This document shows, one piece after another, positions 1,787 to 63,501 of a DNA stretch of 64,000 nt (position 1 is the stretch's first letter; each line of letters opens with the position of its first letter). The position numbers and the translations under genes were made by a program. Origin of the DNA: Candidatus Acetothermia bacterium (GTDB lineage Bacteria; Bipolaricaulota; Bipolaricaulia; RBG-16-55-9); assembly GCA_016201405.1 (NCBI GenBank), contig JACQCZ010000014.1:106631-170630 (forward strand), in the 5' to 3' direction. The notes beneath the pieces were generated by a model. The model did no database searches. It was not told the origin of the DNA and worked only from the letters and a program-made list of their open reading frames with translations.

Positions 1787-2209
1787 ATGGCCAAGGCGCG
1801 AGTCATCTGGAATCAAGATATGCAATTTGTGGGGATCACCGAGAGCGGACATGCCGTTGTAGTCGATGCAACGCCGGATCACGGCGGCTATGGCTCTGCG
1901 CCCAGCAACACAGAGATGATCGCGGTTGCCCAGGGCGGCTGCACTGGGATGGACATCGTTTCGATCCTGCAAAAGAAGCGTGTTGCGTTTGACCGCTTTG
2001 AGATGGAAGTTGATTTGCAGCCCACAAAAGAGCATCCACGGTATATTCAGAGAGTCGAGATCACTTACAAAATCTGGGGTGAAGACCTCTCGAAAGACGC
2101 CATCCACCGCGCCGTTGAGTTATCGCTTGAGAAATATTGCATTGTGGCGCACACCTTGCGCGGACGCGCGGAGTTAAGCTACAAGATTCTGATCAATCCA
2201 TCAGAATAG
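1787..2209 (+). CDS. OsmC/Ohr family protein
   Basis: 140 aa; size and conserved Cys/Gly pattern (AQGGCTGMD) consistent with OsmC-like peroxiredoxin fold. Confidence 0.75.
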   Translation: MAKARVIWNQDMQFVGITESGHAVVVDATPDHGGYGSAPSNTEMIAVAQGGCTGMDIVSILQKKRVAFDRFEMEVDLQPTKEHPRYIQRVEITYKIWGEDLSKDAIHRAVELSLEKYCIVAHTLRGRAELSYKILINPSE

Positions 2210-3454
2210 ATCGGGGAAATCTCCGCTCACATCCATAACGTCCAACTCGATGATCTTGGCTGTAAAACCAAGTAGCTCTGCCAGATTTGGATCTGTGCGC
2301 CCGCCATCTCCGGAGATCAGTTCTTTCACATAAAGCCCGCCATCACAGCGAAGCTCTATCATAGCCTCTGTAGGGCTTAACAACTCTCCTTGGATAGAAA
2401 ATAGATAGCGCCATCGCGTCAGGTTGGCGCGGCGATGAAGCACTCGCTCTGGCGTCTGCTGCGAGATCTTTCCAGTCAACTTTGCGAGTGTACCATTAAG
2501 AACGACAGAATTTATCGGCTTCTCGAAAGTCACTTTTGCCCGATACGACTTTTGAGCCTTCCCTTCTTTGATCTCTTCAACGACTTTTCTTGAAACAAAA
2601 TGGAGATCTCCGGCTTCGACTTTTCCGCTGGCAGTGGCGTTGATTTCACTCTTTAATCCAGCAAGTTTCAACGTACGTACTTTGGGGCTCTTAATCTCCA
2701 GCACAAAAGGCCGCCCAGTGCCGAGCATTCGCGCGTCAATATCCTCGCGACCAGCGCCATGAAAGGCATGCTCTTTGCTTTTTGCCGCCTCTAGCACGGG
2801 AGCGGCAATCAGCTCTCCCACGCTCTCTGGGTACTGCTTCCCCGTCCCCTTGCAATGAGCACAGCCCTTGCCTTTGCATTTTCGGCAGGGCCAGATAGTT
2901 TGCGGAATATTTCGTACAAATTTTTGGTACCGCCCATAGATGTAGAGCGAATGAATTTCAATTTCCAGTTTCTTTCGTTCCAAATCGATTAAAAAGACGA
3001 CTTCAGGTTGGTTAAAATCGACGGCAATCTCCCGTCCTGTTACGTTTTGAGCCTGGCCGAATCTCTTGCCCACCAACCGATTGAACTCCTGTTTGAAAGG
3101 CTCCACTTGTTCTTGAGGAATCGCATAGCGACTCCAGAAGCTCTGCTCAGCCCGGACCACATTCTCAGGAGGGCGCGTTCCCACCAGGTATTTTGCAAAT
3201 TCGACTCCTTCAATACGATCGGCAGAGAGCCTGCTCCATTCTGCTACCTGCTCGAATAGATTATTGCAGATTGAGCAGATAGCAGGGCTATCGGGCTTCT
3301 TTCCTGATTCCATCGCATAGAGGACGCGAAGCGCCCTTCCCCGCTCTTCAACGCTAAGAGCCGTACCTAGTTTGGCAAAACAGCGACCTAAGCAGTGATC
3401 GCAAATGACTTCGTTTGCCAAGATCTCTCTTGCCATCTCAATGAGTGGTTTCAT
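2201..3454 (-). CDS. pus10: tRNA pseudouridine synthase Pus10 (archaeal/eukaryotic type)
   Basis: 417 aa; N-terminal CxxC...CxxC zinc motif, a second Cys cluster (CRKCKGKGCAHCKG) and catalytic-looking GREDIDARMLGTGRPF motif. Confidence 0.7.
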   Translation of the reverse strand: MKPLIEMAREILANEVICDHCLGRCFAKLGTALSVEERGRALRVLYAMESGKKPDSPAICSICNNLFEQVAEWSRLSADRIEGVEFAKYLVGTRPPENVVRAEQSFWSRYAIPQEQVEPFKQEFNRLVGKRFGQAQNVTGREIAVDFNQPEVVFLIDLERKKLEIEIHSLYIYGRYQKFVRNIPQTIWPCRKCKGKGCAHCKGTGKQYPESVGELIAAPVLEAAKSKEHAFHGAGREDIDARMLGTGRPFVLEIKSPKVRTLKLAGLKSEINATASGKVEAGDLHFVSRKVVEEIKEGKAQKSYRAKVTFEKPINSVVLNGTLAKLTGKISQQTPERVLHRRANLTRWRYLFSIQGELLSPTEAMIELRCDGGLYVKELISGDGGRTDPNLAELLGFTAKIIELDVMDVSGDFPDLF

Positions 3455-3528: not shown

Positions 3529-4467
3529 TTGCACATTGTGAGTAAGCCGATGGAGTGGTGGAAGTATCTCATTTTGGCGATCTTTGGCATTGGCATTGTC
3601 GAAGGGATTAGGCATTTGGAGACAGAGGCACTTCTAGCGCTCTTCTTAGGATCTTCGTTCGTGGCCGCAACATGGCTCATCACTCGATCTTCAATCGGAG
3701 AGGCGATTGCAGACCGCATTCGCAGCAGCCCAAAAACTCCTTCCATTAGCGATGCGGTTGCAGAGCACATCCGAGGTAAGACTCTGGCGCAGTTGGACAA
3801 GATAGACAGACCCGACCTGATCTCTCAGCCTGACAAACTCTTCTCAAAGGGTGACAAGAAGAAGATTGAGTCAGATTTTCCAGAAGGAATCATCGCCATC
3901 ATGTTTACCGACATGGAGAATTTTACAGGTCTCATCGAGCGTGGCGATGAAGAGGCTTATCGATTGTTGAAGAAACACAACCAAGTCATCCATGAATCGG
4001 CCAAGCAGTGGAAGGGATATGTTGTCAAGAGCTATGGCGATGGCTTCATGGTCGCCTTTCCGAGCGCGCGCCGCGCTGTCTATGCCGCCATCAGCATCCA
4101 ACAGCTTCTGGAGAACCAGAATTGCAATTTGATGGCCGATGAACAGATTCATGTGCGCATCGGCATTGATGCGGGAGAGCCGATCAAAGAGGGCGATGAT
4201 TACATTGGCAGGGCGGTCAACCGGGCAGCCCGCATCTCAGCACTTGCCAGCGGCAAGCAGATCTATGTATCCGACACGGTGAGGCAGCTCGTCGGCCCTA
4301 TCCAAAATCTGCAATACATTGATCTCGGAGACCAGTCGCTAAAAGGATTCAAAGACCAGCACCAGATCTTTGAGATCAGCCGCGTCGAGGCCCTGGCCCA
4401 CCCGCTAGATTCTGAGATTGACCGCGGCATTGCAGAGCTGGAGAAGCGCGTCAACACCGGAAAATGA
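3529..4467 (+). CDS. membrane-anchored class III adenylate/guanylate cyclase
   Basis: 312 aa; N-terminal TM helices, then cyclase core (FTDMENFT...YGDGFMVAF...RIGIDAGEPI). Stop overlaps ruvX start (ATGA). Confidence 0.8.
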   Translation: MHIVSKPMEWWKYLILAIFGIGIVEGIRHLETEALLALFLGSSFVAATWLITRSSIGEAIADRIRSSPKTPSISDAVAEHIRGKTLAQLDKIDRPDLISQPDKLFSKGDKKKIESDFPEGIIAIMFTDMENFTGLIERGDEEAYRLLKKHNQVIHESAKQWKGYVVKSYGDGFMVAFPSARRAVYAAISIQQLLENQNCNLMADEQIHVRIGIDAGEPIKEGDDYIGRAVNRAARISALASGKQIYVSDTVRQLVGPIQNLQYIDLGDQSLKGFKDQHQIFEISRVEALAHPLDSEIDRGIAELEKRVNTGK

Positions 4468-6411: not shown

Positions 6412-7281
6412 ATGGAGCAAATTCTGCTCTTTGCCCTATTGAAAAGCTCGCTCTATGCGCTGGTTGCGCTGGGTTTTACGCTCATCTTTAGCGTAGGCGG
6501 GATTCTCAATCTGGCGCACGGAGCGATGCTGATGGCTGGTGGATATTTTGCGCTGATCGCATTTCAATTTCTGGGCGTTCCATTAGAGCTGGCTATAATG
6601 CTGGCCATTGCCGCATCCGCTCTCTTAGCCGCGGCTCTCTATTGGTGCATTGTGCGGCATATTCAATATTCTGGTGTCTTGACGCTGGTAGTAACCCTAT
6701 CATTTGCTCTCGCTCTCCAGATCGGTGCAGTGATTGCCTTTGGAGTCAATGCACGCAGCCTTGAGCCTGTCATTGGCGGGATCTCTCTCATCGCCAATGT
6801 GAGTGTCGAGAATGTGCGAATCGCGGCCTTTGCCAGCTCATGGCTGGCGCTTCTCCTCTTCTGGCTCCTTGTGGAGCGAACAAAGCTTGGCAAAGCGATT
6901 CGCGCCATCTCTATGAGCCAGAAGGGCGCCGCTCTCGCCGGCATTCGCATCGAAAGGACCTATCTCTGGACATGGGCCATCTCGGGCGCACTGGCGGGTC
7001 TGGCAGGAATCTTCTTTGCCTACCCTGGTGGCATCTCACCCACAATGTGGATTGATCCGCTCATCATCTCATTCGCGATTGTAATTTTAGGTGGAATAGG
7101 AAGTCTTTCTGGCTCCATCATCGCGGCCTATCTGATCGGCTTTGTCGAGACTTTTACGTTCTATGCGCCGCAGTTGAAGGTTCCTCTCGGAGCGGCATGG
7201 GTTGGAGTGCCATCTCTATTAATTACCATTCTGATCTTGATCTTCCGCCCGCGCGGGCTCTTGGGGAAGCCCGTCGAATGA
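6412..7281 (+). CDS. branched-chain amino acid ABC transporter permease (LivH-like)
   Basis: 289 aa polytopic membrane protein with typical LivH N-terminus (ALLKSSLYALVALGFTLIF). Confidence 0.8.
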   Translation: MEQILLFALLKSSLYALVALGFTLIFSVGGILNLAHGAMLMAGGYFALIAFQFLGVPLELAIMLAIAASALLAAALYWCIVRHIQYSGVLTLVVTLSFALALQIGAVIAFGVNARSLEPVIGGISLIANVSVENVRIAAFASSWLALLLFWLLVERTKLGKAIRAISMSQKGAALAGIRIERTYLWTWAISGALAGLAGIFFAYPGGISPTMWIDPLIISFAIVILGGIGSLSGSIIAAYLIGFVETFTFYAPQLKVPLGAAWVGVPSLLITILILIFRPRGLLGKPVE

Positions 7282-8342
7282 TCACGCGCAAACGTACGTC
7301 TGCTCACGCTTATCTCATTCTGGTCGGAGTGCTTGCAATCCTTGCCATCTTGCCATGGCTAGGCATCCTCTCCCCGGCGTGGTATCGCACACTGATCGCT
7401 GCTCAATTTTTAGCGATCTTTGCGATGAGCTGGGACTTGCTCGGCGGATGCACAGGGCAAGTCAATTTAGGACAAGCCCTTTTCATTGGAGGAGCTGCCT
7501 ATGCCAGCGGCTTGATTGGCCTCTATCTGCACTGGCCTCCGCTGTTTGCCATTCTGGCTGGAGCGCTGGCTGCTATGCTGATCGGGCTGCTTGTGGTAGT
7601 TCCGGCCATTCGCCTGCGGGGTCCATATTTGGCGCTCGTCACGCTGATCGCGCTGATCGCGGCTCTCAAACTGGTGCTCATCTATTCAGATGTGACAGGC
7701 GGGCTGGCTGGCTTCTCCTTCAAGCCGAATGATTTCTTCCCCCCGCTCGGCTACAGCGTGCCGCTAAAGCAAGCTCTGTCCATTTCGTATTATTATGCGC
7801 TCGGGCTGCTTGCACTCCTTGGGTTCGCAATCCTCTGGATCACCCGATCGCGCTGGGGCGCGATCTTTGAGGGGATACGTGAAGATGAGATGGCCCTTGC
7901 TGCCGTCGGGGTCAATCCTGCAAAATTTAAGATTCTGGCTTTTCTAATCAGCTCGGGCGCAGCAGGGCTTGCGGGTGCTGCATATGTCCACTTGCCCATA
8001 CTTCCCGTAGTTCAACCCGCAGGAGCGGGCGGCGTGCTCAGTCTGGATCTCTCTCTTCTGGTAATTGTGGCCAGCGTGGTTGGCGGACTGGGCACGATCG
8101 TAGGCCCTCTCATTGGAGCCTTTGTTCTGAAATTGGGGGAGTTTGGACTCAATCAGCTGCCAAGCCAGTTTGATGACTTAAAAAACATTGAAGGAACAGG
8201 CTGGATCACACTGGTCTTTCTGCTCTTGTTGATATTTTGGGTGCGTTTTATGCCGCGAGGTCTGGTGCCCACTCTCTTTGGGAATGCGATTCGCGGGGCG
8301 AATCTGACTCTTTTAGGATCGGAAAAGAATCGACCCAACTAG
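7278..8342 (+). CDS. branched-chain amino acid ABC transporter permease (LivM-like)
   Basis: Polytopic membrane protein; in-frame ATG at 7278 overlaps the upstream stop (ATGA), so the 7197 ORF start is probably an artefact. Confidence 0.75.
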   Translation: MITRKRTSAHAYLILVGVLAILAILPWLGILSPAWYRTLIAAQFLAIFAMSWDLLGGCTGQVNLGQALFIGGAAYASGLIGLYLHWPPLFAILAGALAAMLIGLLVVVPAIRLRGPYLALVTLIALIAALKLVLIYSDVTGGLAGFSFKPNDFFPPLGYSVPLKQALSISYYYALGLLALLGFAILWITRSRWGAIFEGIREDEMALAAVGVNPAKFKILAFLISSGAAGLAGAAYVHLPILPVVQPAGAGGVLSLDLSLLVIVASVVGGLGTIVGPLIGAFVLKLGEFGLNQLPSQFDDLKNIEGTGWITLVFLLLLIFWVRFMPRGLVPTLFGNAIRGANLTLLGSEKNRPN

Positions 8343-8902
8343 CCATTAAAGCGGTTCATGGCCGTATCAACGTCATTCTTCAGAAAGCAATCGATCGCTT
8401 CAGCAGCCTGATCTAAGAAGTCATCTAGCTCTTTCTCTTGTTCTTTTGAGAAGGGCTGCAATACATAATCTGCGAGCTCGCTTCGTGCTGTGCCATCACC
8501 AATGCCTAGGCGCAGTCTGGGGAACTCTTCGGTCCCCAAGATGTCGATGATCGACCTCATGCCATTATGGCCACCGGCACCTCCCAGCTTGCGAACCCGA
8601 AGGGTTCCAAAGGGGAGCGCATAATCATCATAGATAACAAGAATATCTTGAGGCTGGATGTTGTAGGTCACGCAAAGCTCGGCGACGGCAACTCCGCTGC
8701 GATTCATAAAGGTCTCAGGTTTGGCTGATAAGAAGCTGCCCACTTTAGATGTGCGAGAAAATTTTGTAGAGATGAGCTTGCTGCCCTTTCCGAAATTGGC
8801 CAGATAATGATCGATGACCAGAAAACCCAAATTGTGGCGAGTCCAGTGATATTGCAGACCGGGGTTTCCTAAGCCAAAGACTGCCTTACGATAGGCAGGC
8901 AT
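8339..8902 (-). CDS. pth: peptidyl-tRNA hydrolase
   Basis: 187 aa; GLGNPG and HNLGF motifs of bacterial Pth. Confidence 0.9.
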   Translation of the reverse strand: MPAYRKAVFGLGNPGLQYHWTRHNLGFLVIDHYLANFGKGSKLISTKFSRTSKVGSFLSAKPETFMNRSGVAVAELCVTYNIQPQDILVIYDDYALPFGTLRVRKLGGAGGHNGMRSIIDILGTEEFPRLRLGIGDGTARSELADYVLQPFSKEQEKELDDFLDQAAEAIDCFLKNDVDTAMNRFNG

Positions 8903-8935
8903 AATCTATGGGAATTGCCAGGCAATAGAGAGAGG

Positions 8936-9670
8936 CTACTTGCCCTTCTTCTCTTCCTTGGGTGCCTCTTTGCCGCCCTTGGCCCCTTCCTTGGAAGGCC
9001 CACCCTTACCCGCTTCCTTTGGCGCAGCTCCCTTGGCTCCCTCTGCAGCCGGAGCAGCACCAGGCTCTCCAGTTGCAGCCGCGCCTTCGGCAGCGGCCTC
9101 GCCTTCGGCAGGTGCAGCCACAGCCTCCTCAATCTTGCGCGGGATCATCACTTGAACCAGCAAGATCTCTTTAGGTGTCAGAAGCTGGATGGCGGATGGC
9201 ACTTTTACCTCTCCGGCCCGGACAGAGTCACCAACATCCAGATGTGAGATATCGACTTCAAGGAGCTCCGGGATTGAGTCGCTCGCTCCCGCCACTTGGA
9301 TTGCATCGCGCAGGCGGTTTGTGGCACCGCCCTTCTTCTTGCCCACGGGCTCACCCACGAACTTTACGGGCACCTGAATCTTTATGGGCTTCCCTTCTGC
9401 GGGGCGGAAGAGATCGATGTGCAGCACTCGATCCGAGAGGGGGTGATAATGAATCTCTTTTATAAAAGTGGGAAAGACTTGTCCATCCAGCTTGAGCGAG
9501 ATGCGCGAGCTTCGGGTGATCTTGGACAAAAGCTTTTCGAGATCATGCTGTGGGATCGTGATCTCTTTGTGAAATTCGCGCCCATAGACGACACCTGGAA
9601 CGAGCCCAGAGCGTCTTAGCTCTTTTGGATTCTTAACCTCGCGAACTGCTGCCGTCAATGTATAGGCCAT
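8936..9670 (-). CDS. ctc: 50S ribosomal protein L25 / general stress protein Ctc with Ala/Glu/Lys/Gly-rich C-terminal tail
   Basis: 244 aa; L25 N-domain (LRRSGLVPGVVYG) plus low-complexity tail; sits in the conserved prs-ctc-pth order. Confidence 0.85.
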   Translation of the reverse strand: MAYTLTAAVREVKNPKELRRSGLVPGVVYGREFHKEITIPQHDLEKLLSKITRSSRISLKLDGQVFPTFIKEIHYHPLSDRVLHIDLFRPAEGKPIKIQVPVKFVGEPVGKKKGGATNRLRDAIQVAGASDSIPELLEVDISHLDVGDSVRAGEVKVPSAIQLLTPKEILLVQVMIPRKIEEAVAAPAEGEAAAEGAAATGEPGAAPAAEGAKGAAPKEAGKGGPSKEGAKGGKEAPKEEKKGK

Positions 9671-9731
9671 ATCGTTTCCCCTCTGGATGAATGGTTATCA
9701 TAACAAACCCAGTAAATCCTTGCCAGTGCCG

Positions 9732-10676
9732 CTAATAGTGCGGGAAGAGCTGGCTGACAGATTCACCACTATAGATGAGCTGAATAATCTCTGCAAAGAC
9801 CTTGCCAACGGAGATCGGGAGGATCTTGGAACTCTTGGGCGGAAGGATGGTATTGGTCACACGCACCGACTTGATCTCAGAGCGCTCGATTCTAGCCACA
9901 GCCTCACCGGCAAAGACGCCGTGCGAGAATGCCGCATGGACTTCGCTCGCTCCTCGCTCTAATAACAACTCAGCAGCAGCCACCACAGTGCCACCCGTGG
10001 CGATAATGTCATCGACGATGATGGCTCGCTTCCCTCCGACGCTGCCGATAAGCGTACGCGCCTCGACCTCGCCTGTCTTCTCGCTGATGCGCGATTTCTC
10101 CACGATGGCATAAGGAAGATTGAGCCGCTCTGCTACAGCGCTGGCACGCTTTGCCGCTCCAACGTCTGGCGCAACAATTACTGCGTTTTCAGCCAATTTT
10201 GCCTGCTGAAGGTGATCGGCCAGAATCGGATCGATGCGCAGATTATCGACGGGAATATTAAAAAAGCCCTGAATCTGTCCGGCGGGAAGATCGAGCGTCA
10301 GCATTCGGTCTGCTCCGGCCGTCTCGATGAAGTTAGCAATCAGCCTGGCGCTGATCGGCACTCTTCCGATGTGCTTGCGGTCCTGGCGTGCATAGCCATA
10401 GTAGGGCACTACAGCCGTGATCTGCCGAGCCGATGCCCGTTTCAGGGCATCGATCATCAGCAGCAATTCCATCGTATGGTCGTTGACAGGCTGAGATGTT
10501 GATTGGATGACGAAGACGTCTTCACCGCGCACGGTCTCGCGGATATGGACGTTGATCTCGCCATCTGGAAAACGGCCTACCGTCACTTCGCAAAGTGCAA
10601 TGTTTAAGGAAGAGCTGATCTCTTGCGCCAATTGCGGATTGGAATTCCCTGCGATCAGTTTCAGTTGGCCAGCCAT
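9732..10676 (-). CDS. prs: ribose-phosphate pyrophosphokinase
   Basis: PRPP synthetase motifs (KLIAGNSNP, DRKHIGRVPISA, IVDDIIATGGT). Start chosen at MAGQLK; the ORF extends to 10694. Confidence 0.9.
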   Translation of the reverse strand: MAGQLKLIAGNSNPQLAQEISSSLNIALCEVTVGRFPDGEINVHIRETVRGEDVFVIQSTSQPVNDHTMELLLMIDALKRASARQITAVVPYYGYARQDRKHIGRVPISARLIANFIETAGADRMLTLDLPAGQIQGFFNIPVDNLRIDPILADHLQQAKLAENAVIVAPDVGAAKRASAVAERLNLPYAIVEKSRISEKTGEVEARTLIGSVGGKRAIIVDDIIATGGTVVAAAELLLERGASEVHAAFSHGVFAGEAVARIERSEIKSVRVTNTILPPKSSKILPISVGKVFAEIIQLIYSGESVSQLFPHY

Positions 10677-10740
10677 CGTCCCCCCTCGACTCAAATTTTA
10701 GCTTATCGAATTTGACAAAAGCCTTCAAATGAAGTGAGGT

Positions 10741-11919
10741 TCATTCATAGCGCAGCGCCTCTACCGGGCGGAGCCCAGCGGCCCGCCGTGCAGGAAGCGC
10801 TCCAGCGATGACGCCAAGCACCACGGCAAGCAGAAGTGCGATGAGCATCAATTCAAAATTGAAGTCTGGCCGAAGCGCAGACAATCCCAGTGCAGGAGCA
10901 AGAAGGAGAGTGAGACTGGCCGAGAGTGAAGCGCCTAAAATGAGCCCCAAGATTCCACCCACCAGCCCCAATGTGGCTGCCTCAACCATGAATAGATTTA
11001 TTATCTGGCTCCGTTTTGCGCCAAGTGCCACAAAGACCCCGATCTCGCGAGTGCGCTCCAGCACAGCCATAAACATGGTATTGGTCAACCCCAATACACC
11101 GACAAAAATTGCAATGCCAGCCATCGAGCCCAGAGCGACGCGAATGAGCGAAAAGATTCCCTCAACAGCATCTTTGAGGCGCCCGGGGGTCTGTATGTTG
11201 ATGGACGTGCCTGAGCTGGCAAATGCGCTGCGCAAAGCCGATTCCAGATCATCCATCGCTGCATCGGGGGCTGCGCGCACCCACGCAAATGAGATCTGGT
11301 CTGTGACAGCCTTGAGCTGCCAAAGCCTTTCAATCTCAATTAAAAAAGAGTTCTCCAGATTCTGATCCCCAGTTGGCGCAAGCAGACCTACGACTTGAAA
11401 CTGCCGTCCCTGAATCTGCAAAGAATCTCCCAGGCTAAGTTGAAGTGAACTGGCCGCCCCATGGGTCAGTAAGACTTCATCGGCATTTGAATTGGGAAGC
11501 CTTCCCTCTGCGATCTGAAAGCTCTGAAAGAAGCGGTCTGCCAAAGAGAATGTGCTCTCGGTGAGCCCCAATCCTGTCAAAAAGCCTTTCGCTTTGTTTG
11601 ATGAGACGGCCAGAGTTGTGCGGAGCACCCATCCCGATTGTAAGACTCCAGGGATCTTCTCGATCTTCTGCGGATCGACCTCAATAGACTCGTCGGATGA
11701 GGGGCTATGAGGCGTTGGTTCAGGCAGAATCAGAATCATGTCAGGTCCAAGCCGCTCAAGTTGCGATGACAACGCCCTCTGTACTCCACCACTGATCGAG
11801 AAGAGGGCCACTACGGCGGTCATTCCTGCTGCTATCCCCAAGATCGTCAGAAAAGATCGAATAGGCCGTCGTCTTATATTCTTAAGGGCGAGTCGTGTGA
11901 GATCAAGAGTCTGCCGCAA
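10741..11919 (-). CDS. ABC transporter permease, FtsX/MacB-like
   Basis: 392 aa; N-terminal TM, large periplasmic domain, C-terminal FtsX-type 3-TM bundle. No ATPase gene adjacent. Confidence 0.75.
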   Translation of the reverse strand: MRQTLDLTRLALKNIRRRPIRSFLTILGIAAGMTAVVALFSISGGVQRALSSQLERLGPDMILILPEPTPHSPSSDESIEVDPQKIEKIPGVLQSGWVLRTTLAVSSNKAKGFLTGLGLTESTFSLADRFFQSFQIAEGRLPNSNADEVLLTHGAASSLQLSLGDSLQIQGRQFQVVGLLAPTGDQNLENSFLIEIERLWQLKAVTDQISFAWVRAAPDAAMDDLESALRSAFASSGTSINIQTPGRLKDAVEGIFSLIRVALGSMAGIAIFVGVLGLTNTMFMAVLERTREIGVFVALGAKRSQIINLFMVEAATLGLVGGILGLILGASLSASLTLLLAPALGLSALRPDFNFELMLIALLLAVVLGVIAGALPARRAAGLRPVEALRYE

Positions 11920-15604: not shown

Positions 15605-15982
15605 TCAGGAAGGTGAACCGGCCGGAGAAGGTCTGGAATTGACGAAATAATGGCGCGTAGACTTGGGAGGATAGAGTTCGCCACTCAACCCCCTCCGAAT
15701 GACCTCGGTCTTTGAAACATGAATTTCGGGGCGGCGCGATTCCAGCTCGACCTCCACCTCATAGTCGACCAATAAACATGGAACCAGGGCGATCCCCAGC
15801 GCTTTACAGGCGGCATGGCGGTGATGGCCATCTAAGATCACATACGTCTCTTCGTCTACCAGTATCGGGTAATCCTGCAAAAGCTCTCCATTTTTGATCT
15901 CTTGAATTGTCCGCGCCAAATTCGTGGGATCCACCTCTTCATGGGGGCGAAGCGTATCGACTGGCAAAGTGGCCCGGGTCAT
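15605..15982 (-). CDS. ParB/Srx-fold (ParB N-terminal nuclease-like) domain protein
   Basis: 125 aa; DGHHR motif in a ParB-N-like context. Stop/start overlap with the upstream thioesterase gene. Confidence 0.45.
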   Translation of the reverse strand: MTRATLPVDTLRPHEEVDPTNLARTIQEIKNGELLQDYPILVDEETYVILDGHHRHAACKALGIALVPCLLVDYEVEVELESRRPEIHVSKTEVIRRGLSGELYPPKSTRHYFVNSRPSPAGSPS

Positions 15983-16462: not shown

Positions 16463-17074
16463 TTAGCTGTGGAGAGAGCGGCGATCCAATTCGTTGTGGA
16501 CAACCGAAATGCAGTGATCTGCGTGGAGCACAACGGGGCCTAGGCTCACTTTTGTGCACTCTTTAAGCAGAAGCTCTTCATCGGGCGAAAAATTCTGGTG
16601 ATCGCTGAGCACAAATGCTACTGGCTGCTGAACTGGAGCAGACCGAATGTCAGTGCCGTGCTCATCTAAAACGTGACACAAGATATTGGTCTTTGCAAAG
16701 AATTCTAAAAGCACTCGCAATCCGCGTCTGGCCACATAGACACCAGGGGTGCTCTCTATCTCTTCGGCTTGGTCTGCAATATTCAATCTCTGAGCGCTTT
16801 CGATTGCATGTTTGATGAGCGCGCCCGTGCTTCGCTCATCGGGATTGAGGCGTTTTACTGTTGCGCCATCAAAACGCAGCGTGAGCTGATCCCGCAGAAT
16901 CAAATAGACTGCCACATCCTTGCGAATGCCATGGGAGAGACAGAACGAAGTGGTAATACAGCGCGCCAAGATGTCCATACGCCCGGCACTGCCCGGAAGA
17001 TCATTCAGAGTAAAATCAGGTGTGATGGAAGCTGCATGTCCCAAAATGACAAAGGTTCTCTGGTGATCAATCAT
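16463..17074 (-). CDS. trmY: tRNA (pseudouridine54-N1)-methyltransferase TrmY-like (SPOUT family)
   Basis: 203 aa; motifs LNDLPGSAGRMDILARCI...LSHGIRKDV and C-terminal LHADHCISVVHNELD match the archaeal TrmY pattern. Confidence 0.7.
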   Translation of the reverse strand: MIDHQRTFVILGHAASITPDFTLNDLPGSAGRMDILARCITTSFCLSHGIRKDVAVYLILRDQLTLRFDGATVKRLNPDERSTGALIKHAIESAQRLNIADQAEEIESTPGVYVARRGLRVLLEFFAKTNILCHVLDEHGTDIRSAPVQQPVAFVLSDHQNFSPDEELLLKECTKVSLGPVVLHADHCISVVHNELDRRSLHS

Positions 17075-17172
17075 GAGTTGTTCTTGAGGCTATTCTAGGC
17101 TCTTTTCATGCAGTTTCAACGGGAGAGCGAGTTGCTGCAGATGACGACATCGCGCTAAAATGGAGTCTCGAA

Positions 17173-18018
17173 ATGGAATTCTTAGAGAAGACTCTCTTAA
17201 TGGCCGGGAAAAATTCGAGCTTGCTTTGTGTGGGGCTTGATCCAGAGATAACACAAATTCCTTCTTCTCTTACCCGACAATATGGCGAGAACGCCGTTGT
17301 TGAATTCAATCGAAGAATTATAGAAAACACAAAAGACCTCGTCTGCGCTTATAAACCAAACAGCGCTTTCTACGAGGCGCTCGGTCCGCATGGCCTGGAG
17401 ATTCTGAGAGAGACGCGCAAGCTCATTCCCAAAGGGATCCCCATGATCTTGGACATCAAGCGCGGCGATATTGATAACACCAATCGAAAGTACGCCGAAG
17501 CGGCATTTGATGTTTACAACGCGGATGCCGTGACCCTCAACCCCTATCTTGGACTAGATTCAATTGAGCCTTTTCTTAGCTATAAAGAACGAGGGCTTTT
17601 ATTGCTCTGTCGCACGTCAAATCCTGGCGCAAAAGATATTCAAGACCTGATCTGCAATGGAAAGCCACTCTACCACGTCATGGCTGAGCGAATTCGTGAA
17701 TGGAGCTCGATCAAAAAAACTTTGCAGATTGGGGCAGTGGTTGGTGCAACTTACCCAGCGGAGCTGGTCAGCGTGCGTCAGATTTTGGGCGATGAGCTGA
17801 TCATTCTCGTTCCTGGCGTCGGCAAACAGGCGGGTGAGCTGGAGAAATCCGCAAAGGCCGCAATCAATTCTCAGGGCGAGCGAGCCGTGATCAATGCCTC
17901 ACGCAGCGTCCTCTATGCTTCACCGAATGAGGATTTTGCCGATGCCGCCCGCAGGGAAGCGATGCGCCTGCGAGAGATCATCCATCAGACGATTGAGCGG
18001 GTGACTCAGTCATCTTAA
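17173..18018 (+). CDS. pyrF: orotidine 5'-phosphate decarboxylase (long type)
   Basis: 281 aa; LCVGLDPE, KPNSAFYEALG and MILDIKRGDI motifs. Confidence 0.9.
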   Translation: MEFLEKTLLMAGKNSSLLCVGLDPEITQIPSSLTRQYGENAVVEFNRRIIENTKDLVCAYKPNSAFYEALGPHGLEILRETRKLIPKGIPMILDIKRGDIDNTNRKYAEAAFDVYNADAVTLNPYLGLDSIEPFLSYKERGLLLLCRTSNPGAKDIQDLICNGKPLYHVMAERIREWSSIKKTLQIGAVVGATYPAELVSVRQILGDELIILVPGVGKQAGELEKSAKAAINSQGERAVINASRSVLYASPNEDFADAARREAMRLREIIHQTIERVTQSS

Positions 18019-18064: not shown

Positions 18065-18316
18065 ATGGCCCAGTTGATCATTGAATACTGCCATGAGTGC
18101 ATGTTTTTGGGACGAGCCATCGAGGTCGCTCAAAAGGCACTTCATCATTACCCTGATGCTTTGGAGTCGGTGACTCTTATCCCTGGCTCAAATGGAGTCT
18201 TTACGGTGATGCTTGATCATCTGCCCATTTACACAATCAATGAAGAAGGATTATTGCCATCTTCAGACCAAGTCCAAAATCTGCTCGCAAAGAAGCTAGG
18301 AGCGAAGCTCGCATGA
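18065..18316 (+). CDS. SelW/Rdx family thioredoxin-like protein (Cys-containing homologue)
   Basis: 83 aa; IEYCHEC (CxxC) at the N-terminus and LIPGSNGVF pattern of the Rdx family. Confidence 0.7.
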   Translation: MAQLIIEYCHECMFLGRAIEVAQKALHHYPDALESVTLIPGSNGVFTVMLDHLPIYTINEEGLLPSSDQVQNLLAKKLGAKLA

Positions 18317-18885
18317 AGAAGAGCACCCGAGCCTTATTTCTTGGGAGATTTCAGCCCTATCACAATGGCCATGATGCGGTCATCCGCAAAATCACGGCAG
18401 AAGTAAACGAGCTGATCATCGCGGTTGGCTCAGCTCAATACAGCCACACTCTGCGCGATCCTTTTACCGCCGGTGAGCGCATTATGATGATCACCCGAGC
18501 TCTGGCTGGCCTGAAGAGCACAAAATATGTCTTGCCCATCGAAGATATTGAGCAAAACGCGCTTTACGTTGCGCATATTCGGCGCCTCACACCCGCGTTT
18601 GATCTTGTCTATTCCAATAATTCACTTGTGATCCGGCTCTTTGAAGAGGCTGGCATTGCCGTAAAACAGCTTCCTCTCATTGATCGTGGCCATCTCTGGG
18701 GAACGAAGATTCGTGACCTAATGACCCAGGGCGGCCTATGGCAAACGTACGTGCCCCCTGCCGTATGCACAATCATTGAAGAGATCGGCGGAATCGAGAG
18801 GCTGCAGCAGATCCAGCAGAGCGATCTGCTCAGTACCGGCCCTTCGAGCAGTGCCTCCAGTCCGAGAAGAGGGGAGTCCGATTGA
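18313..18885 (+). CDS. nadM: nicotinamide-nucleotide adenylyltransferase, archaeal NadM type
   Basis: 190 aa; hallmark GRFQPYHNGH plus IAVGSAQYSHTLRDPFTAGER. Start overlaps upstream stop. Confidence 0.85.
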   Translation: MKKSTRALFLGRFQPYHNGHDAVIRKITAEVNELIIAVGSAQYSHTLRDPFTAGERIMMITRALAGLKSTKYVLPIEDIEQNALYVAHIRRLTPAFDLVYSNNSLVIRLFEEAGIAVKQLPLIDRGHLWGTKIRDLMTQGGLWQTYVPPAVCTIIEEIGGIERLQQIQQSDLLSTGPSSSASSPRRGESD

Positions 18886-19993: not shown

Positions 19994-20030
19994 CTTTCAA
20001 CCAACATCGCGGGCGCGAGCGGAGGCATTG

Positions 20031-21905
20031 ATGAGGGGGGCATTATTTCGCTGGATTCTGAGAGTTCTATTCTCTCTTCTTCTGGTCCTCTCCTTCGCTT
20101 ACCAAACTGGGCTTGCAGATGTCAGTCTAGATGTCGAAGTGGGCTTTGGAGGCCAATTCATGTCCGGCCAGTACACTCTCGTCCAGGTCGTCTTGCAATA
20201 TCAGGGCCCGCCTCTCACGGGAGAGCTGGCACTTCACCAAGAGTACAAATCTCCGCTCGAGAGCGAGAAGTCCTTTTCTGAGCGGCGCACGGTGCGCCTG
20301 GGCTCAAATGTCAACCAGCTCTATCAATTCTATTTCCCCGTCTCCCGCTCTCCCTGGCCCAATGAGGATCAGCCCGCTCTCTCCATCACGCTCTCATCCA
20401 ATGGGAGCGTGGTATTTTCGAAGCGCGTTCCCCTCGCCGGCGACGTTGAGCCACAGCCGCTCGTGCTCGGAGTGAGTGAGACCAACTTTCCCCGCATGCT
20501 CACGACAGGAGAGCGGATAGAGAGCGTGGGACTCAATCAGCTGCCGGAGGACTGGCGAGGATATGACGGAGTGAGAAGAATCTATCTGGGCCGCGCGAGA
20601 ACCGACCAGCTCACCAAGCGCCAACAAGACGCGATCCAGCAGTGGATCACACGGGGCGGAGAATTCGTGGTGCTCGGCGGTGAGAATTTCTACTTGCAGG
20701 ATTCTTCGTGGCTGCGCCAGATCATTCCGTTTGATGTCTCAGGAATCGAAGCGGCACAGGCCTCGTCCGATCTGCCCACGTATGTTGCAGGCAAGCCTCT
20801 CGGGGAAGTCCTCATTCAGCGGGCTGCGATCCCACTTCTGGTAGAGCAGCGGGTCGTCAATGGCATCATCTTCTTTTCCGTGCTCGACTTATCACAGCAG
20901 ACGGAATTGTCTCAAGCCATCTGGAACGACTTGCGGCAGACCTCTTCTCTGCTCGACAATCAGCCTCCTGATCTGGGCTCAAAGATTTTGGGAAACACCC
21001 AGCTCGCTTATCCATCAAAGCCGCTCCTTGGCGCTCTGTTGATTCTTTATCTAATAGGCTTTGCCTATATCAGCCTTTGGATGCTGCGGCAGCCCCTCAA
21101 CACCTTGCTCTCCTCTCCCGAGGGCGGTGAGATGCGCAGAAAGAGGCAGGGCTGGAAGGTGCTCGCCTTTGTTGTCGGCTGGATGCTCATCTTTGCAGTC
21201 CCGAGCCTTGCCTATCTGGGCCAGCCCAGATTTCACAGTTATTTTCAGTCTCTTGAGGTCGGGTTGATCAGAGCCCAGGAGGGATCGTCCTGGGGCTGGA
21301 GCCAGAGCTGGTACAGTGTCATCTCCAAGAAGGAGCGCAGCCTCTCGCTGGCAGCCAGCGACAACTCTCTCATCCTGCCCCTGGGGCAGACGCAGCTGGA
21401 ACTGCTGCAAGAACGCCCCGATGCGTGGGATTTGGACTTTTCACCCAACCCTATGAAAAGCTGGTCCACAGAGAACCTCTATACCGAAGAGATGGTGCCG
21501 CTTGACATCGGCGTACGCGCGGACAAAGAGGGTGGAGATGTCAGAGGCTCTCGGATTCAGGTCTATAATGGCAGCCAATGGAACCTGCGGGATGCCGTGC
21601 TCTTTCGCAACGGAGTCTATTATCCCATCGGAGAGGTCCCAGCCGGAAAGTCGCTCACCGCTGAGCTTAGCGGTCTGGGACTCAATGAGTGGTCACCATG
21701 GAGTGGCTTCAAAGACCTCTGGAGCATCGAGGAGCGGGTGAAGAATGTCATCATGAATCAGCTCGGGATTACGGATGAATTGAAGAGGGATCGCAGCCAA
21801 TGGGTCTTGCTCGGCTGGGCCGAAGTTCGCGCGCTGACTCAGGCTTACCGCGAAAATCGTCAGGGACTTTCACTCATTCTCATTCGCTCCAAGGAGCAAG
21901 AGTAG
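20031..21905 (+). CDS. hypothetical exported/membrane protein, first gene of the MoxR-VWA operon
   Basis: About 624 aa; N-terminal signal peptide, two central TM helices, no recognised catalytic motif. The ORF formally starts at TTG 20028. Confidence 0.5.
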   Translation: MRGALFRWILRVLFSLLLVLSFAYQTGLADVSLDVEVGFGGQFMSGQYTLVQVVLQYQGPPLTGELALHQEYKSPLESEKSFSERRTVRLGSNVNQLYQFYFPVSRSPWPNEDQPALSITLSSNGSVVFSKRVPLAGDVEPQPLVLGVSETNFPRMLTTGERIESVGLNQLPEDWRGYDGVRRIYLGRARTDQLTKRQQDAIQQWITRGGEFVVLGGENFYLQDSSWLRQIIPFDVSGIEAAQASSDLPTYVAGKPLGEVLIQRAAIPLLVEQRVVNGIIFFSVLDLSQQTELSQAIWNDLRQTSSLLDNQPPDLGSKILGNTQLAYPSKPLLGALLILYLIGFAYISLWMLRQPLNTLLSSPEGGEMRRKRQGWKVLAFVVGWMLIFAVPSLAYLGQPRFHSYFQSLEVGLIRAQEGSSWGWSQSWYSVISKKERSLSLAASDNSLILPLGQTQLELLQERPDAWDLDFSPNPMKSWSTENLYTEEMVPLDIGVRADKEGGDVRGSRIQVYNGSQWNLRDAVLFRNGVYYPIGEVPAGKSLTAELSGLGLNEWSPWSGFKDLWSIEERVKNVIMNQLGITDELKRDRSQWVLLGWAEVRALTQAYRENRQGLSLILIRSKEQE

Positions 21906-21907
21906 CG

Positions 21908-22666
21908 GTGTCCGCGCAAGAGCGCGCATCAGTAGCCAATCCCAAGAGCACTGCCCCGAAAATCCCTTGGCTGGGAACCGATTGGGACTACTGGTTCGAC
22001 CGCGAGACGTGGTCATCCCTGATGGCGTTTCTTCTGCTGTCGGGAGGCATCTTGCTCGTTGCCTTGCCGAACACAACCGAAGTCGGCAGGCTCACTCCCA
22101 AATCCATGGAAGCGACTGATCTCTTCTCGGCCCTCTATTCAATCTTATTTGGGATTCTGGCGATCACGCTTGGACAGGCCGAGTTGTCTTGGGGACATCG
22201 GCTCAGCAGCCAGGAGCATTTTGTTCATCTATTTAGCCGTCTGGTGGTGCCGCTGGTGCTCAGTCTGCCCTACTGGATTCTTTATATCTTCGCCAATATC
22301 ATGAGCCCACTTTTAATTATTGTACTCCTTGTGCATTTTATTTTATATGGTTATGTGCTCGGGCTTTGCGGCTGGCGGCTATCGCTGATGGGGCAGTCCG
22401 AGATCTTCCAATTCAACATCAAATATCTGAGCTACTTTGGGCTGGTCGCGATTACCTTCTTTGCTGCGCCGCTCCAGTTCATCAATCCCATCTTGGCGAT
22501 CACGGAGATTTTGGGGGAGAATGGCATGGCTCCCGCACTCAATCTGTTGGGCTTCTATACCGCATGGCTGGCGCTGGGTGCGGTCATAGCGTACTTGATC
22601 TTGCACAAACTGAATACGGAGAATCGAGAAATGGAGGAGTATGAAAACGAACTATCTCGTCGTTGA
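21908..22666 (+). CDS. hypothetical polytopic membrane protein
   Basis: About 253 aa with about 6 predicted TM helices; GTG start immediately after the upstream stop (the ORF track begins at 21800, overlapping the previous gene). Confidence 0.45.
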   Translation: MSAQERASVANPKSTAPKIPWLGTDWDYWFDRETWSSLMAFLLLSGGILLVALPNTTEVGRLTPKSMEATDLFSALYSILFGILAITLGQAELSWGHRLSSQEHFVHLFSRLVVPLVLSLPYWILYIFANIMSPLLIIVLLVHFILYGYVLGLCGWRLSLMGQSEIFQFNIKYLSYFGLVAITFFAAPLQFINPILAITEILGENGMAPALNLLGFYTAWLALGAVIAYLILHKLNTENREMEEYENELSRR

Positions 22667-24380
22667 GCAAGAGGTGATTGAGGCGCGGCGGCGGTTGAAT
22701 CGCCTTCAGGGTGTGCGGCTGGGGTTGACTCTCTCAGCCTCGCTGACGCTCGTCTATCTCATTCTCTTCTTCTTTGGCTGGGTACAGTTGATTCAGCCCT
22801 GGCCGATTCTCATTCTCTTTAACGCCATCTGCGGCGGACTCGGCATGATGTGGGGAGATCGGCGTCCAACGCGCCTCCAGCACGACCTGCTCCGTGTCGA
22901 CCGCGCGCTAGGGCTTGGCGAGAAGCTCACGACGATCTTTGAGCTTCGCCGGGGTGAGCGCTCATCCGACATCTTGGAAGCCCTCTATCGCCGGATTGAC
23001 CAGAGCCACGTCGATCCCAAAGAAGTCTTCAAGCTCCCCCGCACGGAGCAGAATGGCTGGTATGCGCTCGGCGGGATCACTGCCGGCATCTTGCTGATGA
23101 TCGGGCTTTGGGGGAATGGCCTCAGTCTCCTCCATATTGAGCAATGGCTCCAAGGTCTGCCGATAAATGAGCTTTCCAGTCAACAGACTCTCCTGGGTAA
23201 AGATGCACTGGATGGCTCACAAAGCGTTTTAGGGAAGGGCCAGAATCAATCGAATGCCAAAGATAAGAAGAGTGATGACGCAGCCTGTGAAAAGCAAGAC
23301 TCTTCTTCAACAGCCCTGAGCAGCGATGCAAATTGCGTCAATGGCAGAGATCAGAATTCACCTACAGATTCGCAAAATCAGACGGCGAAGAATCAAAATG
23401 GCCAGAATATGCCGCCAAACTTTCCACAGAGTCTGTCCGATTTGCTGCAACAGCTCCAGCAGGGGAATATCTCACAAGATGAAGTGCAAAAAGATCTGAG
23501 CAGCCTCGCCAATCAGCTTCCGCCAGGCCTGTTGCAAGATATGCTAAAAGACGCAGCAAAGAGCATGGATCCTGCTGACCTTGCGAAGCGGCTGGCCGAT
23601 GCCCTCAAGGAAGCACAACGTCAGGATGAGAACCAGAAGAAGCGGGCTCAATCCAATGACAAAAATGACAACCAGCCCTCTCCTCAAGGGGGCCCAGGCT
23701 CCAAAGGCCAGGGGATCCCGGGTATGGCCTCTGGAGACCAATTGGCAAATCAGAATCAAAACAACTCGAATAAATCAGGCACAGAAGCCCCGAACAGCGG
23801 GAGCTCTTCCTCACAATCCGGTGAGAACCCAGATCAGCCCAAAGGTGGGGATCAGTCAAACCAGTCTGGGCAGGCCGGGGGCAAGCAGGGCAGCAGTGAC
23901 TCCCTCTCCCAGAATGGCAAGAGCAAAAATGACTCACCCGACAAGAAAGATGAAAACGGGAAGAGCTCTGATGGCTCCGGCACGAACGACGGATCCAATA
24001 ACAGCGGAAGTAGTAGCGGCTCCCCTGAAAGCTCATCGGATGACGAGGGCTCTGGTGGCAAAGACTCATCGGGTGGCAATGGAGCCGGTGACACCGCTGG
24101 AAATGGCAAGGATGGGAAGAAGGATCAGTCTTTGACCATGGATAAGAGCCTGCTCATCCACGGCGCCAGTCTTCCGCAGGATGCTGAGCAGCTCAAGCGG
24201 TTAATTACGCTTGGATTGCCCGTGGATTTGCAAGGCACTCAAGCCGATGGGACACCCACGCTCAAGCTCAATATCGAGCGTGTCGAGTCGCTGCTCCAGC
24301 TCCGCGAGCTTCCCCCCAATCTGAGAGCGCTGGTCCGGGCCTATTTCTTGGCTATCGCCGGAGAAAAATCGTCCAAATAA
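22641..24380 (+). CDS. hypothetical membrane protein with a roughly 300-aa Q/N/S/D/G/K-rich disordered region
   Basis: 579 aa; N-terminal TM helices, third TM near residue 150, long low-complexity polar segment, conserved-looking C-terminal 80 aa. Start overlaps upstream stop by 26 nt. Confidence 0.5.
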   Translation: MKTNYLVVEQEVIEARRRLNRLQGVRLGLTLSASLTLVYLILFFFGWVQLIQPWPILILFNAICGGLGMMWGDRRPTRLQHDLLRVDRALGLGEKLTTIFELRRGERSSDILEALYRRIDQSHVDPKEVFKLPRTEQNGWYALGGITAGILLMIGLWGNGLSLLHIEQWLQGLPINELSSQQTLLGKDALDGSQSVLGKGQNQSNAKDKKSDDAACEKQDSSSTALSSDANCVNGRDQNSPTDSQNQTAKNQNGQNMPPNFPQSLSDLLQQLQQGNISQDEVQKDLSSLANQLPPGLLQDMLKDAAKSMDPADLAKRLADALKEAQRQDENQKKRAQSNDKNDNQPSPQGGPGSKGQGIPGMASGDQLANQNQNNSNKSGTEAPNSGSSSSQSGENPDQPKGGDQSNQSGQAGGKQGSSDSLSQNGKSKNDSPDKKDENGKSSDGSGTNDGSNNSGSSSGSPESSSDDEGSGGKDSSGGNGAGDTAGNGKDGKKDQSLTMDKSLLIHGASLPQDAEQLKRLITLGLPVDLQGTQADGTPTLKLNIERVESLLQLRELPPNLRALVRAYFLAIAGEKSSK

Positions 24381-24402: not shown

Positions 24403-25389
24403 ATGACCATCGAGATGCAACTGGCAAAAACAGAAGAGGTCTTCCAGAAGCTGACGCGTGACATTCAGAAAGTTATTGTCGGCCACCAGGAGACTATCCG
24501 GGGGACGCTGATCTGCCTGCTCTGTGGCGGGCATGCTCTTCTCGAAGGCGTACCCGGGCTCGGCAAGACCCTCACCGTAAAGACGCTGGGTAAATTATTG
24601 GGGCTCTCTTTCTCCAGAATTCAGTTTACGCCCGATCTCATGCCCGCAGACATTTTGGGAACCAATATCATTGTGGAAGAGGGAGGCCGGAGGGCCTTTG
24701 AGTTTTCAAAGGGCCCCATCTTTGCCCATATTGTGCTGGCGGACGAGATAAACCGCGCCACCCCCAAGACGCAATCTGCGCTCCTCGAAGCGATGCAGGA
24801 GCGCGGGGTCACCATCTCCGGCAAAACTTATGTACTGGACGAGCCATTTATCGTTCTGGCCACGCAGAACCCCATCGAGATGGAAGGCACATATCCTCTG
24901 CCTGAGGCACAAGTAGACCGCTTCTTCTTCAAGATTGTCCTCGATCAGCCGACGCAAGAAGAGCTGGACGAGATTCTCAAGCGCCACATGACATCACCGG
25001 AAGTGAAGCACATCGCCGGAAGCGCCATCTCGCGCGAGACTCTAGTCGACGCAAAGAAGCTGATGGCTCAGATCCCTATTGCGGAGCCGTTGCGCCATTA
25101 CATCGTGCGGCTGGTCAATGCCACGCATCCCAAGCGGGATGAGGCAGCTCCGCTGGTCAAAGAATACGTCGAATATGGAGCGAGCCCGCGCGCTGGCATC
25201 GCCCTTCTCTGGGGCGCAAAGGCCAATGCATTCTTAGATGGCCAATTGAACGTTCGCATCGAAGATATTCAGCGCGTCTTTGTGCCTGCATTCCGGCACC
25301 GAATCATCCGCAACTTCCGGGGCGAGGCGGAGGGCATCGCCGTCGATGAGATCTTAAAACAAGTGATCGAGAAGACTCCCGAGGTATAG
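24403..25389 (+). CDS. MoxR family AAA+ ATPase
   Basis: 328 aa; Walker A GVPGLGKT, Walker B VLADEINR, and the MoxR sensor region. Confidence 0.9.
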   Translation: MTIEMQLAKTEEVFQKLTRDIQKVIVGHQETIRGTLICLLCGGHALLEGVPGLGKTLTVKTLGKLLGLSFSRIQFTPDLMPADILGTNIIVEEGGRRAFEFSKGPIFAHIVLADEINRATPKTQSALLEAMQERGVTISGKTYVLDEPFIVLATQNPIEMEGTYPLPEAQVDRFFFKIVLDQPTQEELDEILKRHMTSPEVKHIAGSAISRETLVDAKKLMAQIPIAEPLRHYIVRLVNATHPKRDEAAPLVKEYVEYGASPRAGIALLWGAKANAFLDGQLNVRIEDIQRVFVPAFRHRIIRNFRGEAEGIAVDEILKQVIEKTPEV

Positions 25390-25395
25390 CGGCAC

Positions 25396-62107: not shown

Positions 62108-63500
<1,393 letters not shown>

Positions 63501-63501
<1 letters not shown>

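Follow-up and report, generated by a model that had tools for sequence, protein, structure and literature searches.

Archaeal-type Pus10 and TrmY genes in the bacterial phylum Bipolaricaulota and a probable route to N1-methylpseudouridine at tRNA position 54

The archaeal-type tRNA modification genes pus10 and trmY were analyzed in a stretch of 64,000 nucleotides (hereafter the window) from the metagenome-assembled genome (MAG) of Candidatus Acetothermia bacterium (GTDB lineage Bacteria; Bipolaricaulota; Bipolaricaulia; RBG-16-55-9), which corresponds to positions 106,631 to 170,630 of the forward strand of contig JACQCZ010000014.1 in assembly GCA_016201405.1. In archaea Pus10 forms pseudouridine at tRNA positions 54/55, while bacteria normally use TruB for position 55 and a methyltransferase, TrmA or TrmFO, for the ribothymidine at position 54 (T54). 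Our results make it likely that this member of the Bipolaricaulota has stably inherited archaeal-type T-loop genes from an old euryarchaeal acquisition, with Pus10 producing pseudouridine-54 and TrmY converting it to N1-methylpseudouridine-54 (m1-pseudouridine-54). With only slightly less assurance we expect, from the genes encoded in these 64 kb, that the tRNA of the source organism carries m1-pseudouridine-54. The in vivo products of the two enzymes and the replacement of T54 are what we infer from these genes. A sequence-only reading of the window had proposed that both archaeal-type genes occur in one genome, and this proved correct, as both proteins pass the thresholds of their equivalog models and their genes lie 13 kb apart.

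The pus10 gene (positions 2201 to 3454, minus strand) is a complete open reading frame (ORF) with an ATG start that encodes a protein of 417 amino acids, annotated as tRNA pseudouridine(54/55) synthase Pus10, a family also known as COG1258. The hidden Markov model search that had been suggested as a check of the Pus10 assignment gave 491.7 bits (E = 1.4e-147) against a cut-off of 200 for TIGR01213, the NCBIfam Pus10 equivalog, and the match was full-length, extending from residues 7 to 409 of the protein onto positions 2 to 401 of the 402 positions of the profile; a family match of this kind is far above what would be expected by chance. A THUMP domain (residues 73-157; positions 2984 to 3238, minus strand; Pfam PF22023 Pus10_THUMP_arc, 70.2 bits with a cut-off of 28, profile positions 1-78 of 78) lies N-terminal to the pseudouridine synthase catalytic domain (residues 171-409; positions 2228 to 2944, minus strand; Pfam PF21238 Pus10_C, 240.1 bits, profile positions 1-231 of 232). 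The sole solved relative by sequence is human PUS10 (2v9k), residues 281-526 of which align with the catalytic domain of the window protein (phmmer, E = 1.8e-36). An AlphaFold2 model built with 57 relatives as input reached a predicted local distance difference test score (pLDDT) of 93.7 and a predicted template modeling score (pTM) of 0.86, and a Foldseek comparison of this model with the PDB ranked 2v9k first over the whole chain (E = 4.2e-32, query TM-score (TMq) 0.79), followed by the TruA family, which matched the catalytic domain only (TMq 0.39). The full-length equivalog match, the two Pus10-specific Pfam domains and the fold match to human PUS10 thus bear out the assignment of this ORF to Pus10, and they also rule out membership in a different THUMP-domain family, which had been named as the finding that would speak against it. 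Judged from its sequence, the ORF is a full-length Pus10. Comparison with the 82%-identical homologue in another locus (L019) gave a nonsynonymous divergence (dN) of 0.099 and a synonymous divergence (dS) of 0.761, and the resulting dN/dS ratio of 0.13 indicates purifying selection.

The residues associated with catalysis and with modification of position 54 were located in the translation. Their conservation was assessed in an alignment of 57 Pus10 relatives that were 47-82% identical, and equivalences to the enzyme of Methanocaldococcus jannaschii were assigned from published residue numbers and constant offsets of 36-37. The zinc-binding N-terminus that had been anticipated is present as a zinc-ribbon-like segment with two CxxC pairs (C18, C21, C60 and C63; positions 3266 to 3403, minus strand), and the four cysteines of this putative zinc site are invariant and have as counterparts Cys31/34/106/109 in M. 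jannaschii Pus10 and the four zinc-ligand cysteines in human PUS10 (PMC3753934). Likewise, the catalytic-looking motif was recovered as GREDIDARMLGTGRPF (residues 235-250; positions 2705 to 2752, minus strand), with invariant R236 and D238, the latter being the predicted catalytic residue, and with D240 conserved to at least 90%; these three residues are the counterparts of Arg273, Asp275 and Asp277 in the R-x-D-x-D motif of the M. jannaschii enzyme. In that enzyme the catalytic core comprises Arg273, Asp275, Asp277, Tyr339, Ile412, Lys413 and Leu440 (Joardar et al., 2013; PMC3753934). The window residues Y304, K377 and L404, which correspond to Tyr339, Lys413 and Leu440, are invariant, and V376, at the merely hydrophobic position of Ile412, is the sole mapped residue that does not reach at least 90% conservation.

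A cysteine cluster, CRKCKGKGCAHC (positions 2852 to 2887, minus strand), follows the pattern of the forefinger loop. Its four cysteines (C190, C193, C198 and C201) are invariant, and the stretch from C190 to C201 together with the KGTGKQYPESV that comes after it corresponds, at an offset of 37 taken from the catalytic aspartate, to the two forefinger-loop segments of M. jannaschii Pus10, ffl1 (Cys227-Arg231) and ffl2 (Cys238-Val249). The complete segment CRKCKGKGCAHCKGTGKQYPESV at residues 190-212 thus represents a forefinger loop of full length with both ffl1 and ffl2, and it is conserved in the clade along with the thumb-loop residues H340 and R341 (positions 2432 to 2437, minus strand), which are invariant and equivalent to His376 and Arg377 of M. 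jannaschii. Deletion of ffl1/ffl2 in the M. jannaschii enzyme abolished pseudouridine-54 activity and left pseudouridine-55 activity intact, and His376-Arg377 contribute to pseudouridine-54 formation in vitro (PMC3753934). Since the catalytic and specificity residues of the window protein map onto those required for pseudouridine-54 formation according to Joardar et al. (2013), they support its competence for this position, and by these residues it is a predicted member of the pseudouridine-54-competent, M. jannaschii-like subtype.

The M. jannaschii enzyme, which acts on both positions 54 and 55, shares with the window protein the N-terminal four-cysteine segment, the THUMP and catalytic domains, the R-x-D-x-D motif, the core of tyrosine, hydrophobic residue-lysine and leucine, the full forefinger loop with cysteine-rich ffl1/ffl2 and the His-Arg thumb, and differs from it in that the window protein has a bacterial host; the closest archaeal representatives are approximately 43-47% identical to it. 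Pyrococcus furiosus uses T54 and has no need of TrmY, in contrast to the genome of the window, which encodes TrmY. Its Pus10 shares family and catalytic core with the window protein, but in vivo forms only pseudouridine-55, lacks ffl1/ffl2 and carries Asn-Ser in the thumb (PMC3753934), whereas the window protein contains ffl1/ffl2 and His-Arg. Human PUS10 has the GREDxDxRxLGxGRPF and LHRR motifs in common with the window protein, but is longer (530 amino acids) with an enlarged N-terminal accessory domain, is only 23% identical to it in the structural alignment and has no cysteine cluster in its forefinger, reading WIIDGERKLE in place of the WPCRKCKGKGCAHCKGTGKQYPE of the window protein.

The second gene of the pair, trmY (positions 16463 to 17074, minus strand), encodes a predicted tRNA (pseudouridine(54)-N1)-methyltransferase of 203 amino acids (SPOUT, DUF358/COG1901). 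Its product scored 221.2 bits with the TrmY equivalog NF002560 (cut-off 183), with residues 6-200 aligned to positions 2-198 of the 200 positions of the profile, and 169.9 bits with Pfam PF04013, so that the TrmY-like gene that had been noted at this place can be named more firmly; 34 columns are invariant among 40 TrmY relatives. In a phmmer search of the PDB the protein matched, over the full length, M. jannaschii MJ1640 (3ai9/3aia; 138 bits, E = 2e-39), an experimentally characterized TrmY, and AF_1056 (114 bits). The scores of 138 and 114 bits to archaeal TrmY, compared with only 52 bits to Vibrio cholerae VC_A1059 (2qwv), a bacterial DUF358/PF04013 protein without known function that shares the Pfam family and the SPOUT fold, indicate that the window TrmY is of the archaeal type and led us to reject its assignment to a divergent bacterial DUF358 branch. 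It differs from MJ1640 in its bacterial host; in addition, trmY does not lie next to pus10 here, in contrast to many archaeal contigs.

Both genes are widespread in the phylum. Among the best 120 database clusters for Pus10 and for TrmY, every named match was assigned to Bipolaricaulota, Acetothermia or Fraserbacteria, the last of which GTDB places inside Bipolaricaulota. A scan of GTDB representative genomes found 15 loci with close homologues, 14 of which were labelled Bipolaricaulota, Acetothermia, Fraserbacteria or, in one case, 'uncultured Thermotogae', and the remaining one 'uncultured bacterium'. TrmY is found in the lineages that have Pus10, and five sizes of longest contigs (121680, 90701, 97813, 67439 and 32527) are common to the match lists of both proteins, which suggests that pus10 and trmY are probably on the same contigs there, as is often the case. 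Relatives of pus10 and trmY are widespread in MAGs of Bipolaricaulota, Acetothermia and "Fraserbacteria", where they occupy conserved bacterial positions and are under purifying selection.

The pathway that these genes suggest would begin with binding of tRNA by the THUMP and N-terminal domains of Pus10, which would then isomerize U54, and probably also U55, to pseudouridine. TrmY, with S-adenosylmethionine, would subsequently methylate N1 of pseudouridine-54 to give m1-pseudouridine-54, an isostere of T54. TrmY accepts only pseudouridine-54 that was made earlier by Pus10 (PMC9508554; PMC7912444), and m1-pseudouridine has been described as an isostere or mimic of ribothymidine (PMC6380271). 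The route through TruB and TrmA or TrmFO also acts on U54 and U55 of the T-loop and leads to isosteric products, but it relies on unrelated protein families and reaches position 54 by methylation of uridine at C5, whereas Pus10 and TrmY would combine isomerization with subsequent methylation at N1.

Searches for this bacterial route were carried out by tblastn with Escherichia coli TruB, E. coli TrmA and Bacillus subtilis TrmFO as queries. No match below an E value of 0.4 was found for the three proteins in the window and 15 loci, nor any at 1e-4 in the window and 99 loci, which amount to 1.13 Mb of local sequence around pus10 and trmY rather than to whole genomes. Similarly, no TruB_N, GIDA or U5-methyltransferase domains were found in the sampled contexts on contigs of 459-870 kb. 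We nevertheless consider it rather doubtful that TruB, too, has been displaced in the source organism. The local range of these searches (the window and 99 loci) leaves room for an alternative in which the window protein is a pseudouridine-55-only enzyme like that of P. furiosus, replacing or backing up TruB, with position 54 left to a bacterial methyltransferase, and some archaeal Pus10 enzymes indeed form only pseudouridine-55 in vivo (PMC3753934; PMC7912444). This alternative appears improbable, because TrmY, which has no known substrate besides pseudouridine-54, is conserved and co-distributed with Pus10 in the phylum, and because ffl1/ffl2 and the thumb His-Arg, which the pseudouridine-55-only enzyme lacks or has replaced, are kept in the clade.

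Slightly less probable still is a recruitment of the Pus10 and TrmY genes to another RNA target, such as T-loop-like motifs of tmRNA or rRNA, or to a non-catalytic role in RNA binding or as a chaperone. Human (nuclear) PUS10 has catalysis-independent roles (PMC9957541), and T-loop enzymes can act on further RNAs that contain a T-loop (PMC7912444). In the bacterial clade, however, the catalytic aspartate and the core residues are invariant, the partnership with TrmY has been kept, and the THUMP and N-terminal domains, which are used in recognition of the tRNA acceptor end, are complete; moreover, additional targets would add to the modification of tRNA and not replace it.

The claim of a bacterial context was likewise substantiated. 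AlaS encoded on the window contig is of the bacterial type (TIGR00344, 875 bits, cut-off 457) and falls below the threshold of the archaeal model TIGR03683 (401 bits, cut-off 745), and the contig also carries genes for Pth (TIGR00447) and RuvX/YqgF (TIGR00250), a pth-rplY(L25/TL5)-prs cluster (Prs being phosphoribosyl pyrophosphate synthetase), a MacB/FtsX permease, bactofilin, PspA and BatA/MoxR/vWA proteins. Within the window, pus10 and trmY lie inside an unbroken run of such bacterial genes, and Pus10 and TrmY proteins 100% identical to those of the window have been deposited at NCBI from a contig of 488 kb assigned to 'Candidatus Acetothermia bacterium', where the NCBI pipeline already names both correctly. 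The surroundings of the two genes recur in independent assemblies from JGI, ENA, NCBI and Logan: locus L019 has the order Prs-L25-Pth-ABC-RuvX-cyclase-Pus10-OsmC, a 460 kb ENA contig (L104) has RuvX-Pus10 at 51% identity, and three further loci (L017, L100 and L102) share the order PyrF...TrmY-(4HBT)-PCMT-PKD/cupredoxin. Divergent members of the clade are found beside genes for ValRS, UppS, bacterial MetK, LigA, RlmN and a sigma-70 factor, as recognized by eye from their N-termini. Codon usage of pus10 and trmY is typical of the window (ranks 15 and 35 of 52), and their GC content at third codon positions (GC3) is at its low end (z = -2.1 and -1.85), similar to that of alaS and pth. The host-like codon usage and the GC3 akin to that of alaS and pth fit an old acquisition. 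These features, together with chromosomal positions that are kept down to approximately 51% protein identity, led us to reject a recent island as the origin of the genes. The idea that an archaeal fragment was misjoined to, or misbinned with, bacterial DNA, to which the metagenomic source of the genome and the low GC3 of both genes might lend some color, is effectively refuted already by the unbroken bacterial run on one contig, by the repeated gene order in independent assemblies, which excludes an assembly artefact, by the close homologues in 15 representative MAGs that are all labelled bacterial, and by a codon usage that is typical and a GC3 as low in alaS and pth.

With regard to the origin of the genes, an exhaustive HMMER search with Pus10 returned 2670 representative proteins (one per 50%-identity cluster, E <= 1e-3), the best of them 47% identical. 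In a neighbour-joining tree with 100 bootstraps the best 120 matches formed one clade, the core of which was recovered in 88 of the 100 bootstraps when the placement of one sequence (P0122) was ignored. The nearest named outgroups, located near this Bipolaricaulota clade, were sequences from Halobacteria, Methanosarcinales and Halobacteriota archaea. A second group, composed of P0125, P0153 and P0144, is approximately 37-39% identical to the window Pus10 and sits near halophilic and marine euryarchaeal sequences; P0125 and P0153 are labelled Bipolaricaulota/Acetothermia, and P0144 is without a name. Gene order in a metagenome scan provides a hint as to how the two genes could have travelled, as 19 loci from outside the Bipolaricaulota clade have trmY and pus10 as immediate neighbours. 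In L051, L062 and the loci resembling those of Methanosarcinales or Halobacteriota, trmY is co-oriented with pus10 and directly upstream of it; further loci with adjacent genes include L032, L040, L070 and L071, and a P0152-like group has the two in divergent orientation, next to a gene for tRNA-Pro(CGG). On the 2.09 Mb contig of L051 the order FtsY-SRP54-TrmY-Pus10 occupies positions 7052-11227, the TrmY stop overlaps the start of Pus10, and the SRP54 encoded there is of the archaeal type, with 419 bits to P. furiosus SRP54 compared with at most 253 bits to bacterial Ffh. Because of this adjacency in archaea, one adjacent archaeal unit could have delivered both steps of the pathway. Most likely, a euryarchaeote was the source of both trmY and pus10 in an old joint acquisition, in which the two plausibly travelled as one adjacent unit, and the genes would later have drifted apart on the chromosome; that this occurred in a single event is likewise what we infer.

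Several observations weigh against this account of an inherited archaeal pathway or against parts of it. The archaeal sister grouping of the Pus10 clade was found in only 18 of 100 bootstraps, the best such grouping, so that the neighbour-joining tree does not resolve the donor of pus10. The group with P0125 and P0153 joined the main clade in 2 of 100 bootstraps only, and its position outside that clade means that more than one transfer may be involved; it could have arisen by a second transfer or reflect an effect of composition or of long branches. Within the Bipolaricaulota clade no locus has trmY within 10 kb of pus10 (the distance in the window being 13 kb), and because the genes are not adjacent in these bacteria, the idea of a single transfer draws only on the archaeal gene order. 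On the side of function, the M. jannaschii residues were mapped by number offsets and not by an alignment with the M. jannaschii sequence, and TruB, TrmA or TrmFO may coexist with Pus10 and TrmY, in which case perhaps only some tRNAs would carry m1-pseudouridine-54, similar to the situation with human PUS10.

Some further features of the window concern the immediate surroundings of the two genes. The pus10 gene (minus strand) and an OsmC-like gene (positions 1787 to 2209, plus strand) are convergent and overlap at their 3' ends by 9 bases (2201 to 2209), and the same convergent arrangement, also with an overlap of 9 bases, is present in L019. A scan for promoters and terminators around pus10 gave no relevant signal above the shuffled expectation. 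Two class III adenylate/guanylate cyclase domain proteins are encoded at positions 3529 to 4467 (plus strand) and 42172 to 43011 (minus strand), the first of which is divergent from pus10, an arrangement kept in L019.

Near trmY, the 4HBT thioesterase gene, with the TTG at 16533 as the start of the longest ORF, shares 71 bases with the end of trmY (16463 to 16533); since the thioesterase of relatives is called shorter (158-165 amino acids) and starts past trmY, its true start is probably further downstream. Between the PCMT and thioesterase genes lies an ORF of 125 amino acids (15605 to 15982, minus strand) without a Pfam match, which matches the ParB/Srx-like N-terminal region of SbnI and of the archaeal ADP-dependent serine kinase SerK at a sub-threshold score (57.9 bits, cut-off 380), and L100 has a 123-amino-acid ORF without a Pfam match at the same place. 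In L017, L100 and L102 trkA-trkH are located directly upstream of trmY and co-oriented with it, whereas the window has no trkA-trkH and a subfamily-2 pyrF (17173 to 18018, plus strand) abuts trmY (17074-17173). Pyrimidine genes are otherwise scattered, with pyrB and pyrI (Pfam PyrI, the aspartate carbamoyltransferase regulatory chain) at the end of the window (62111 to 63501, plus strand). A second archaeal-type gene near trmY, 1.2 kb away, encodes a nicotinamide-nucleotide adenylyltransferase (NMNAT; 18313 to 18885, plus strand; TIGR01527 arch_NMN_Atrans, 213 bits, cut-off 181), and the block PyrF-Rdx/SelW-NMNAT-HD is found in L100 as well. Three consecutive large ORFs of 625, 288 and 579 amino acids (20028 to 24380, plus strand) have no Pfam or NCBIfam match and stand directly upstream of a MoxR AAA-DUF58-BatA/vWA-vWA cluster (24403 to 30721). 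No tRNA or other Rfam RNA genes were found in the 64-kb window.

In reviews and primary papers up to 2023, Pus10 was stated to be absent from Bacteria (PMC6380271, abstract and introduction; PMC7912444, section 4.4; PMC9957541, section 5.5), a statement that is contradicted by a bacterial phylum stably keeping Pus10 and TrmY. Our literature search found no paper in which Pus10 or pseudouridine appears together with Acetothermia or Bipolaricaulota, and, to go by titles and abstracts, truB is named alongside Bipolaricaulota only in papers on subjects other than tRNA modification. Likewise, the supplements of two genome papers on Acetothermia/Bipolaricaulota contained no truB, pseudouridine or Pus10 term. 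The annotation of both proteins is already available in public databases, and they are ordinary members of their families; what is new is the occurrence of a known enzyme pair in a new domain of life, which is not a new type of system and implies no new mechanism. A more far-reaching view, which we hold to be possible yet unlikely, is that Bipolaricaulota are the first bacterial lineage with m1-pseudouridine-54 in place of ribothymidine, in which TrmA/TrmFO and TruB would all have been displaced by Pus10 and TrmY, with one enzyme serving positions 54 and 55, and for which a single transfer of a euryarchaeal trmY-pus10 operon would have been sufficient.

Textbooks and reviews regard Pus10, pseudouridine-54 and m1-pseudouridine-54 as traits of archaea and, in part, of eukaryotes (PMC6380271; PMC7912444; PMC9957541). 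The presence of the gene pair in Bipolaricaulota would offer a natural experiment on whether m1-pseudouridine-54 can replace T54 in combination with the ribosomes, elongation factors and tRNA-processing enzymes of bacteria, and since a first cultured isolate of the phylum was recently described in a preprint (10.1101/2025.11.21.689855), direct nucleoside analysis is now feasible. In addition, the pair would represent a clean case of a two-step RNA modification pathway crossing domains.

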